Of a stretch of 64,000 bases of DNA, positions 56,637 through 57,005 are shown piece after piece; within the stretch, counting starts at the first letter, position 1, and each line of letters starts with the position of its first letter. The stretch lies in the NCBI RefSeq assembly GCF_003334355.1, contig NZ_QOWP01000022.1. One strand, 5' to 3'. Source of the stretch: Escherichia coli (GTDB taxonomy: Bacteria > Pseudomonadota > Gammaproteobacteria > Enterobacterales > Enterobacteriaceae). The notes under the pieces are model-generated. The model did no database searches and had not been told where the DNA came from. It was given only the letters and a program-made list of their open reading frames with translations. The translations under genes and the position numbers were made by a program.

Positions 56637-57005
56637 TTTATTTATATTGCGAATATAAATATTTTCTGAAAATCATATCTCATCTCTTTCCTTAATTACG
56701 ATTTTAGTTTAAACATCTCTTTGCGGAAATAATATAACTTCCTATAAACAAATATCAATTCCACCGTCATACACTAATCAACTGCACTTGTGAATTTATT
56801 TTTACTTAATTTTGAATTAAGTAAATTTAATTTGTTCAAAACTCTCTAAAGTGCACAATAGGCGACCTAATGAACAATGGTTGTAAATTTGGGTAACAAA
56901 TATCATTGCTCATTAATATCTAACATTTGTTTTTCCTATTTGTGTCATGAATAGTCATTCTTCAAACATGTAGTCTGACTAATGGAATTTTATTAAAGGA
57001 TTTTT
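56637..57005 (+). promoter_or_regulatory. AT-rich upstream region of the yad fimbrial operon (putative promoter and silencing region)
   Basis: 369 bp strongly AT-rich non-coding DNA containing the palindrome ttacttaatt-ttg-aattaagtaa at 56802-56824. Confidence 0.45.

Follow-up and report, generated by a model that had tools for sequence, protein, structure and literature searches.

We identified a conserved AT-rich dyad that constitutes the upstream edge of the minimal regulated promoter fragment of the yad fimbrial operon of Escherichia coli, and the perfect palindrome present in the analysed sequence may be regarded as the K-12/phylogroup A version of this dyad, located at the border of the H-NS-silenced yad promoter. 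The dyad is of an ordinary kind, appears not to have been described before, and sits in a known H-NS-silenced fimbrial promoter region. In our preferred reading, to which we assign a rough probability of 0.4, the dyad core is a functional double-stranded DNA element, namely a docking site for silencing or anti-silencing proteins, and its perfect form arose from templated mutation.

The analysed DNA, hereafter referred to as the window, is a 64-kb stretch of the E. coli chromosome of K-12 type. On its plus strand, the list of open reading frames includes pcnB (54742-56160), folK (56157-56636), yadN (57006-57590), yadV (57695-58435) and htrE (58470-61067). The gene yadN codes for the major subunit and is the first of the yad chaperone-usher operon, with Pfam family PF00419 recognized on its homologues; folK lies upstream in the same orientation, and both genes were confirmed by the RefSeq annotation of identical or near-identical DNA. 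The folK-yadN spacer (369 bp, 26% GC) is the most AT-rich segment of the 52-64 kb profiled, and according to a promoter scan its promoter-like sites are no more numerous than expected by chance.

Within this spacer, a palindrome scan of the window located the perfect palindrome TTTACTTAATT-ttg-AATTAAGTAAA at 56801-56825, with 11-bp arms, a 3-nt spacer and its centre at 56813. The initial annotation had reported a perfect inverted repeat with 10-bp arms at 56802-56824; its letters are exact, but the arms extend to 11 bp. The placement about 180 bp upstream of yadN was correct, with 181 nt between the end of the right arm and the ATG at 57006, and 193 nt between the palindrome centre and this ATG. 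The palindrome is contained in an extended, unstranded quasi-palindrome (56793-56833) with 19-nt arms, of which 16/19 positions are complementary (84%); according to a per-pair table, its outer mismatches are paired in other alleles, which gives rise to perfect arms of 13-17 bp. ORFs of 21-29 aa span the palindrome in the window.

The palindrome is real and goes beyond what base composition yields by chance. For this assessment, 5,000 dinucleotide-preserving shuffles of the folK-yadN spacer were searched for perfect palindromes with the given arm threshold and an inner spacer of ≤10 nt; arms of at least 11 bp were obtained in 25 of the shuffles and arms of at least 10 bp in 82. A second perfect palindrome (10/3/10) is located just 3' of the folK stop codon at 56639-56661, and two palindromes with arms of at least 10 bp, as found in the real spacer, occurred in 0/5,000 shuffles. 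With the arm threshold set at 9 bp, the whole 64-kb window yielded 12 perfect palindromes, 10 of them GC-rich, and the 2 AT-rich ones are both in the folK-yadN spacer. As single-stranded RNA or DNA, the fold of the palindrome outperformed 200/200 shuffles (z ~ -4 to -5).

There is one palindrome locus per genome, which rules out a dispersed repeat such as a REP, a MITE or an IS end. An exact 35-mer around the palindrome was recovered from 1,264 of 5,426 genomes, the palindrome of K-12 MG1655 is identical to that of the window, and other near-identical forms are present in ~168 genomes; the second places reported within a genome most probably represent the palindrome matching itself on the other strand. 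No match was found in phages, and plasmid carriage was discarded, as the matches labelled as plasmids are Mb-scale or error-rich chromosomal sequences; among these, pC27A-2, a 149-kb 'plasmid', carries an error-rich copy of the chromosomal folK-yadN region. Regarding conservation across strains, a point raised in the initial annotation, the perfect form is not kept, being restricted to the 1,264 genomes above, whereas the dyad at the same centre is.

The absence of a second copy stated in the initial annotation was corroborated, since no further copy was found in the 64-kb window at up to 3 mismatches, and no enrichment of half-sites was found in it. A degenerate direct copy (56687-56708), located 114 bp upstream of the palindrome and 77% identical, was rejected as a repeat partner; it is not palindromic, no counterpart was seen in the other aligned alleles, and it was treated as a chance resemblance. 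A 441-bp query was found in 4,593 of the 5,426 complete genomes at 4,607 places, as one colinear piece in 40/40 sampled matches; the comparison of leader orientation across strains revealed no inverted form among the 5,426 E. coli genomes, and the 35-mer with its 3-nt spacer inverted was present in 0/5,426.

The folK-yadN spacer occurs as at least eight allele families that are mutually ~50-55% identical, and YadN is 79-87% identical across three of them. In 13/13 sampled alleles, covering E. coli phylogroups to E. fergusonii, the dyad occupies one and the same column of the alignment, at a distance of 181-197 nt from the ATG. The lengths of its perfect arms and spacer are 11/3 in the window (K-12) allele; 13/9 in the B2 allele carried by LF82, UTI89 and others (TTAATTTTACTAA-ttttcatat-TTAGTAAAATTAA); 16/9 in the E2348/69 allele as well as in the E166 allele; 15/5 in CFSAN061771 (L029); and 17/7 in 1217KP (L030). 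Perfect forms longer than that of the window were noted in L029, L030, L005 and L013. The s144, ST131, TW10598, GF131 and E. fergusonii alleles display 5-6 perfect bp, and longer arms when G.T pairs are included. Syntenic loci of E. albertii, Salmonella and Pseudocitrobacter (YadN identity of 50-55%) were reached by protein search and look-ups of the encoding contigs; their spacers are unalignable and without the dyad, and they were set aside as uninformative. A contig profile search with the YadN alignment, based on signal-peptide patterns, retrieved one E. coli locus only.

The comparison of 8 representative diverged alleles revealed an unstranded conservation island over the dyad (56790-56824), with a mean pairwise column identity of 0.69-0.73 that peaks at 0.73 over 56800-56824, as compared to 0.54 for the whole spacer and 0.30-0.42 for the flanks. 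The only other comparable islands are found on the plus strand at 56850-56922 (0.61-0.72), a putative core promoter or early yadN leader contained in the active CFT073 reporter described below, and in the ribosome-binding region (0.78-0.88). The dyad block and the putative core promoter are conserved to the same degree. Its conserved core reads TTTT-ACT(T)AA ... TT(A)AGT, in which the ACT and AGT triplets (block columns 15-17 and 31-33) are nearly invariant; the sequence of the inner and outer arms and the length of the perfect stretch differ among alleles, and the centre is fixed.

Downstream of the dyad, our own PWM scan marked the -10-like hexamer CACAAT at 56854-56859 on the plus strand, a candidate -10 element of the yad promoter. 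In five of the eight alleles included in the scan, it falls at one shared position of the alignment; the hexamer reads CAAAAT or TACATT in other alleles and CCAAAT in E2348/69, and this last variant makes the promoter assignment uncertain. The predicted weak promoter TTGTTC-16-CACAAT and its equivalents are conserved in position; overall, the scan produced several candidates and no unique conserved promoter, and a mapped yadN transcription start site was not found in the searchable literature. Seven allele families have 41 nt between the dyad centre and the conserved TGCACAAT block, which holds CACAAT, and the remaining families have 31-32 nt. A shift of approximately one helical turn as the sole length change would fit a dyad-bound factor facing the promoter; this shift reflects no more than one or two indel events and is only suggestive.

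The lux reporter Pyad of strain CFT073, whose primers are listed in the S3 table of the corresponding study, delimits the regulated region (PMC13245861). When these primers were placed on the sequence, the reporter was found to begin 14 nt upstream of the B2-type palindrome and to stop 27 nt short of the ATG. The reporter yields ~200 units in the wild type and 19,000-20,000 in a Δhns background, with ~30 units for the empty vector, corresponding to a ~100-fold de-repression, and it is serum-inducible (PMC13245861). Since this fragment is active and starts at the dyad, one or more strong promoters must be situated at the dyad or downstream of it, and the promoter, the H-NS control and the induction are all contained within a dyad-edged fragment. 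The 'operon leader' label of the initial annotation is therefore doubtful, given that a reporter starting 14 nt upstream of the equivalent palindrome already holds a promoter.

Further, the K-12 spacer corresponds to the H-NS-associated 'promoter island' 156927_379, which displays many overlapping promoter-like sites (PMC3661553). It shows the traits of an H-NS-silenced promoter island, namely low GC content (26%), H-NS association and de-repression in Δhns. Overproduction of SlyA increases yadN expression 2.4-fold (PMC5797941), and LmiA does not bind PyadN (PMC11657066). Furthermore, yadN is among four genes for which nearby non-coding variants have agreeing effects in GWAS, a promoter model and reporter fusions (bioRxiv 10.1101/2025.06.10.658842). 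A factor, deletion or footprint mapped to the dyad was not found in the searchable literature.

According to our preferred reading, the dyad would act as double-stranded DNA, a symmetric docking site that sets the access to the downstream promoter, where, as candidates, H-NS could nucleate its filament, an anti-silencer dimer of SlyA (MarR) or LeuO (LysR) type could bind, or both; protein binding, the identity of the binder and any transcriptional effect are inferred here. Perfect arms of 11 bp are a lineage-specific trait and would probably derive from hairpin-templated mutation acting on an older quasi-palindrome. Several observations point to such a docking site: conservation forms a discrete peak over the dyad block within a ~50%-diverged spacer, the dyad occupies the same column in the 13 sampled alleles, and its distance to TGCACAAT is either kept or shifted by about one helical turn. 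The dyad-edged CFT073 reporter fragment, the H-NS-bound promoter island together with the SlyA effect on yadN, the expression effects of the yadN non-coding variants, and the single-copy nature of an element that was found neither in phages nor on genuine plasmids are also consistent with it. Of the proposal for a dimeric regulator site or a switch-associated repeat made in the initial annotation, the first half is maintained as the preferred, putative reading on the basis of dyad geometry and positional conservation, while the phase-switch half fails. To our knowledge, and by informal comparison with consensus sites, none of the SlyA (TTAN6TAA), CRP, FNR, ArgR, OmpR, EvgA, TrpR or RcsAB box motifs fits in both sequence and spacing, nor do those of TyrR (whose halves are everted here), NarL (heptamers matching at 6 of 7 positions, with the wrong spacing) or CpxR (GTAAA repeats).

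Some features count against a docking site. About half of the spacer-bearing genomes have a weak dyad of 5-7 perfect bp, including those of B1 (~1,531), ST131 type (~715) and s144 type (~460). In the B1 type (e.g., L001), two substitutions affect both members of one pair, which changes from A:T to a non-complementary G/A and is broken. Perfect arms of 15-17 bp exceed what a dimer needs and differ by allele, which points to nucleic-acid pairing and argues against protein contacts.

A functionless quasi-palindrome in AT-rich DNA, repeatedly perfected by template-switch errors and with no role in the expression of yad or folK, is a serious rival that we consider quite possible. At least five alleles hold different long perfect versions on the same centre: arms of at least 13 bp were observed in five alleles versus 0.34 expected, and the sum of the longest perfect runs amounts to 134 versus 85 ± 6, a value obtained in 0/5,000 shuffles, neither figure being corrected for phylogeny. 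Within the block, two differences separate L029 from K-12, namely the replacement of an adjacent TT by AA, through which two former mismatches become paired, and one change on the loop side, and E2348/69 differs from other B2 strains by an A-to-C change that creates a G:C pair. The palindrome at 56639-56661 likewise resembles a lineage-specific complementary copy beside an invariant block, as its lineage-specific left arm pairs with GAATATAAATA...TTC.GAAAA, which is invariant in the 13 sequences covering it. Judged from the alignments, this arm matching and these pair-creating differences would be the pattern expected from hairpin-templated (template-switch) mutation, with the polarity of the 'correcting' changes presumed. 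The degraded dyads of the B1, ST131, s144 and E. fergusonii alleles agree with a lack of function as well. However, templated mutation accounts for the perfection of the arms and not for the slow divergence of the core, in a block that matches the putative core promoter in conservation while its flanks are nearly unalignable, and whose position relative to the downstream block was kept or moved by ~10 bp.

It is unlikely that the element works as a plus-strand RNA hairpin, either as a 3'-end-protecting or weakly terminating stem for pcnB-folK read-through, or as a structure of a long yad leader. The arrangement of the locus would be compatible with it: folK is co-oriented, no intrinsic terminator was found in the folK-yadN spacer by a terminator scan, and the PWM scan placed stronger promoter-like sites upstream of the dyad, at a distance of ~265-270 nt from the ATG. 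The stretch separating folK from the dyad contains a C-rich, G-poor tract of rut-like composition (56680-56800, plus strand; GC skew of -0.235), and the 118 nt upstream of the dyad contain 21-37 C versus 5-10 G in 13/13 alleles. The plus-strand RNA hairpin of the window reaches -8.5 kcal/mol and precedes a U-rich run; in 8/9 alleles, folding is more favourable for the plus than for the minus strand; and the changes found in s144, ST131 and E. fergusonii retain G.U pairs exclusively on the plus strand. Nevertheless, only the window, B2, E2348/69 and E166 forms have a significantly stable hairpin, the B1, E. fergusonii, s144 and ST131 hairpins being no different from shuffled sequence, and the U-run is not kept in the B2 and E166 alleles. 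An intrinsic terminator was rejected as a candidate, considering the stem with one G:C pair, the negative scan and the lack of conservation of the U-rich tail. Formal covariation across the dyad alleles is weak, with 76.5% of paired cells versus 73.6 ± 1.6 in column shuffles (reached in 23/500), a covariation score of 0.160 versus 0.132 ± 0.020 (reached in 51/500), and a clean double change at one pair only (T:A to A:T); a further covariation calculation gave a comparable outcome. Moreover, the Rfam search of 56400-57200 with E up to 10 gave two chance-level matches and no family; folK, yadN and pcnB have no entries in the Term-seq supplements of PMC7815308; and transcription of the active CFT073 reporter cannot initiate upstream of the dyad.

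We are similarly doubtful that the palindrome is promoter DNA in itself, with a -35-like TTTACT in the left arm and a -10-like TAAATT (TAAAAT in B2 and E166) in the right arm and its flank, forming a mirrored face-to-face pair or a promoter shut by cruciform extrusion under supercoiling. AT-rich flanks favour the extrusion of cruciforms, as described in the older literature. Each DNA strand of the palindrome folds at ~ -7 kcal/mol (z ~ -4), and promoter-like pairs were detected by the PWM scan at the same alignment position in B2 and E166 (TTTACT-15-TAAAAT, score of 8.1) and in the window (score of 6.5); in the latter, the best pairing for the same -10 is TTTTTA-17-TAAATT, and TTTACT-15-TAAATT is a manual reading. 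The promoter-island character of the spacer, the location of the element at the 5' end of the active reporter fragment and the response of yad to temperature and oxygen (PMC13245861) would also suit this alternative. Conversely, sigma-70 tolerates a 15-bp spacer poorly, the s144, ST131 and B1 alleles lack the hexamers, cruciforms with 11-bp arms are marginal in vivo, and the missing mapped start site weighs here too. A related and rather improbable proposal is a structural gate, in which a cruciform or an unnamed anti-silencer would couple supercoiling, temperature, oxygen or serum cues to H-NS relief.

The remaining explanation, in which the palindrome would serve as the target of a recombinase or mark one end of an invertible element for a phase-variable yad operon, has next to no credibility; what speaks for it is the general precedent of invertible promoters in some fimbrial operons (fim). 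At the population level the invertible-switch reading is refuted: in addition to the colinear genomes, the absence of flipped forms and the lack of a partner copy, for which the 77% identical direct copy is no substitute, no fimS-type repeat is present in the folK-yadN spacer of the window or of 12 other E. coli sequences, no recombinase gene adjoins it (the annotated neighbours being pcnB, folK, yadN and yadV), and the sole 11-mer inverted repeat within ±1.5 kb connects the coding sequence of folK with that of yadN, as expected by chance. The spacers of the window and the 12 other E. coli sequences are also devoid of GATC, excluding a Dam/Lrp switch of the pap type, and the E. fergusonii spacer contains one GATC, 33 nt before the ATG. 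According to a 2026 study, Yad fimbriae do not undergo phase variation (PMC13245861).

Recent work showed Yad fimbriae to be serum-induced and to help tissue colonization by extraintestinal pathogenic E. coli. The minimal active fragment is bordered on its 5' side by a short, conserved and symmetric element, which offers a target for mutagenesis and pull-down approaches directed to the relief of H-NS silencing at yad. The yad promoter region comes in at least eight very divergent alleles with different dyads, and this diversity could be a basis of the cis-acting differences in expression reported among strains. If the structural gate were true, palindrome perfection (A versus B1, with 13-17-bp arms in B2 and others) would explain strain differences in Yad expression and virulence. 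If the element were inert, it would represent a clean natural case of lineage-specific quasi-palindrome perfection.

Comparison with known systems places the yad dyad apart from the classical fimbrial switches. The fimS element is bounded by two 9-bp inverted repeats 314 bp apart, is acted upon by the FimB and FimE recombinases, and occurs in both orientations in populations. The yad palindrome is likewise upstream of the major-subunit gene of a chaperone-usher fimbria, but paired repeats, recombinases and dual orientation were not found at this locus. The pap switch needs two GATC sites within Lrp sites; yad is also a fimbrial operon with a long regulatory region, but its spacer is devoid of GATC in the 13 E. 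coli sequences covered (the window and 12 others). Cruciform-regulated promoters of the Horwitz and Loeb type, together with C-type extrusion in AT-rich contexts, offer a further parallel: the yad element is a perfect AT-rich palindrome in AT-rich DNA that overlaps promoter-like hexamers and belongs to an operon responsive to supercoiling-related cues, although its arms are short (11 bp in the window) and the comparison is by analogy only.

Quasipalindrome hot spots of template switching are known from the E. coli thyA and lacZ reporters, and the process both creates and maintains hairpins. In these systems, as would also hold for yad, mismatches are replaced by complementary bases, sometimes as adjacent doubles, and lineages are perfected differently; the evidence at yad differs in being comparative only, with a presumed direction of change, and the core sequence is also conserved. 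Lastly, H-NS-silenced promoters relieved by anti-silencers include hlyE for SlyA, cas and bgl for LeuO, and inv for RovA. The yad region differs from these systems in that the 25 bp of the palindrome are connected to H-NS, SlyA or LeuO by no footprint, ChIP summit or motif match, TTAN6TAA, the motif of SlyA, does not occur in register in the dyad, and long perfect palindromes are unusual among H-NS sites. It resembles them in being AT-rich, H-NS-bound and ~100-fold de-repressed in Δhns, with yadN raised by SlyA and with the element located upstream of the promoter, where such sites sit.

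The 369-bp spacer between folK and yadN (56637-57005; yadN is the first gene of the yad chaperone-usher fimbrial operon) falls into at least eight allele families across the compared loci (L001-L005, L009, L013 and L020-L030), with a mutual identity of only ~50-55%, while the flanking genes are far more alike and YadN itself retains 79-87% identity over three of these families. The spacer is a hypervariable promoter region, and its variability is consistent with the reported cis-acting expression variation at yadN. On a finer scale, two ST131 strains (L025 and L026) differ by 5 nt in length adjoining a C-run, ~95-110 nt upstream of the yad dyad, the inverted repeat that precedes yadN (aligned as ATTATTC......CC CCCCCACCCC vs ATTATTT-TTTCGCC CCCCCACCCC); a simple-sequence tract may vary here in the promoter region of ST131 yad.

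A second perfect AT-rich palindrome (10/3/10, TATTTATATT-gcg-AATATAAATA; 56639-56661, and 56651-56672) begins 2 nt past the folK stop. Its right arm lies within the block GAATATAAATA..TTC.GAAAA, which shows no variation among the 13 sequences covering it and could correspond to the 3' end of folK or have a regulatory role. The complementarity of the left arm is confined to the A and B1 lineage, and B2-type alleles carry GAATAT-aaat-ATATTC at this site instead.

Between folK and the dyad, a C-rich, G-poor tract (56680-56800) is present in 13/13 alleles, each of which holds 21-37 C and 5-10 G within the 118 nt upstream of the dyad, a composition that is rut-like. Because no intrinsic terminator was found after folK, this composition suggests Rho-dependent termination of read-through from the co-oriented pcnB-folK genes.

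Other repeats were also recorded. A degenerate direct copy of the yad palindrome (TTTCCTTAATTACGATTTTAGT, 56687-56708; 17/22 identical) lies 114 bp upstream of it, and displays no symmetry of its own; no counterpart was seen in the other alleles of the spacer alignment. An exact 11-mer inverted repeat, TGCTGTTTGGT, at 56455 and 57529, links the folK and yadN coding sequences; since matches of this kind are expected by chance at ~1 per 3 kb, and inversion would disrupt folK, this pair was taken as fortuitous.

Strain PSS-11 (L006, locus 1589-2421) has an IS1 insertion immediately 3' of folK and has lost both the spacer and yadN, retaining a fimbrial gene fragment; this is one route of yad locus loss in some strains. 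In the 149-kb record of 'plasmid' pC27A-2 (CP044307.1, L031), the chromosomal folK-yadN region recurs in a version riddled with indels, which is probably an artefact of sequencing or assembly rather than a mobile copy.

The yad dyad is absent from the syntenic loci of E. albertii and Pseudocitrobacter and from related ones (L011, L012, L019, L014/L015 and L017). Common to them is another dyad, GGTGA-N6-TCACC (with a variable N6: GAAAAT, CGTTTT or CTCTTC), located ~30 nt before the fimbrial-subunit ATG and directly 5' of the ribosome-binding site. This dyad looks like paired CRP-type half-sites, or like a short hairpin with some G+C.
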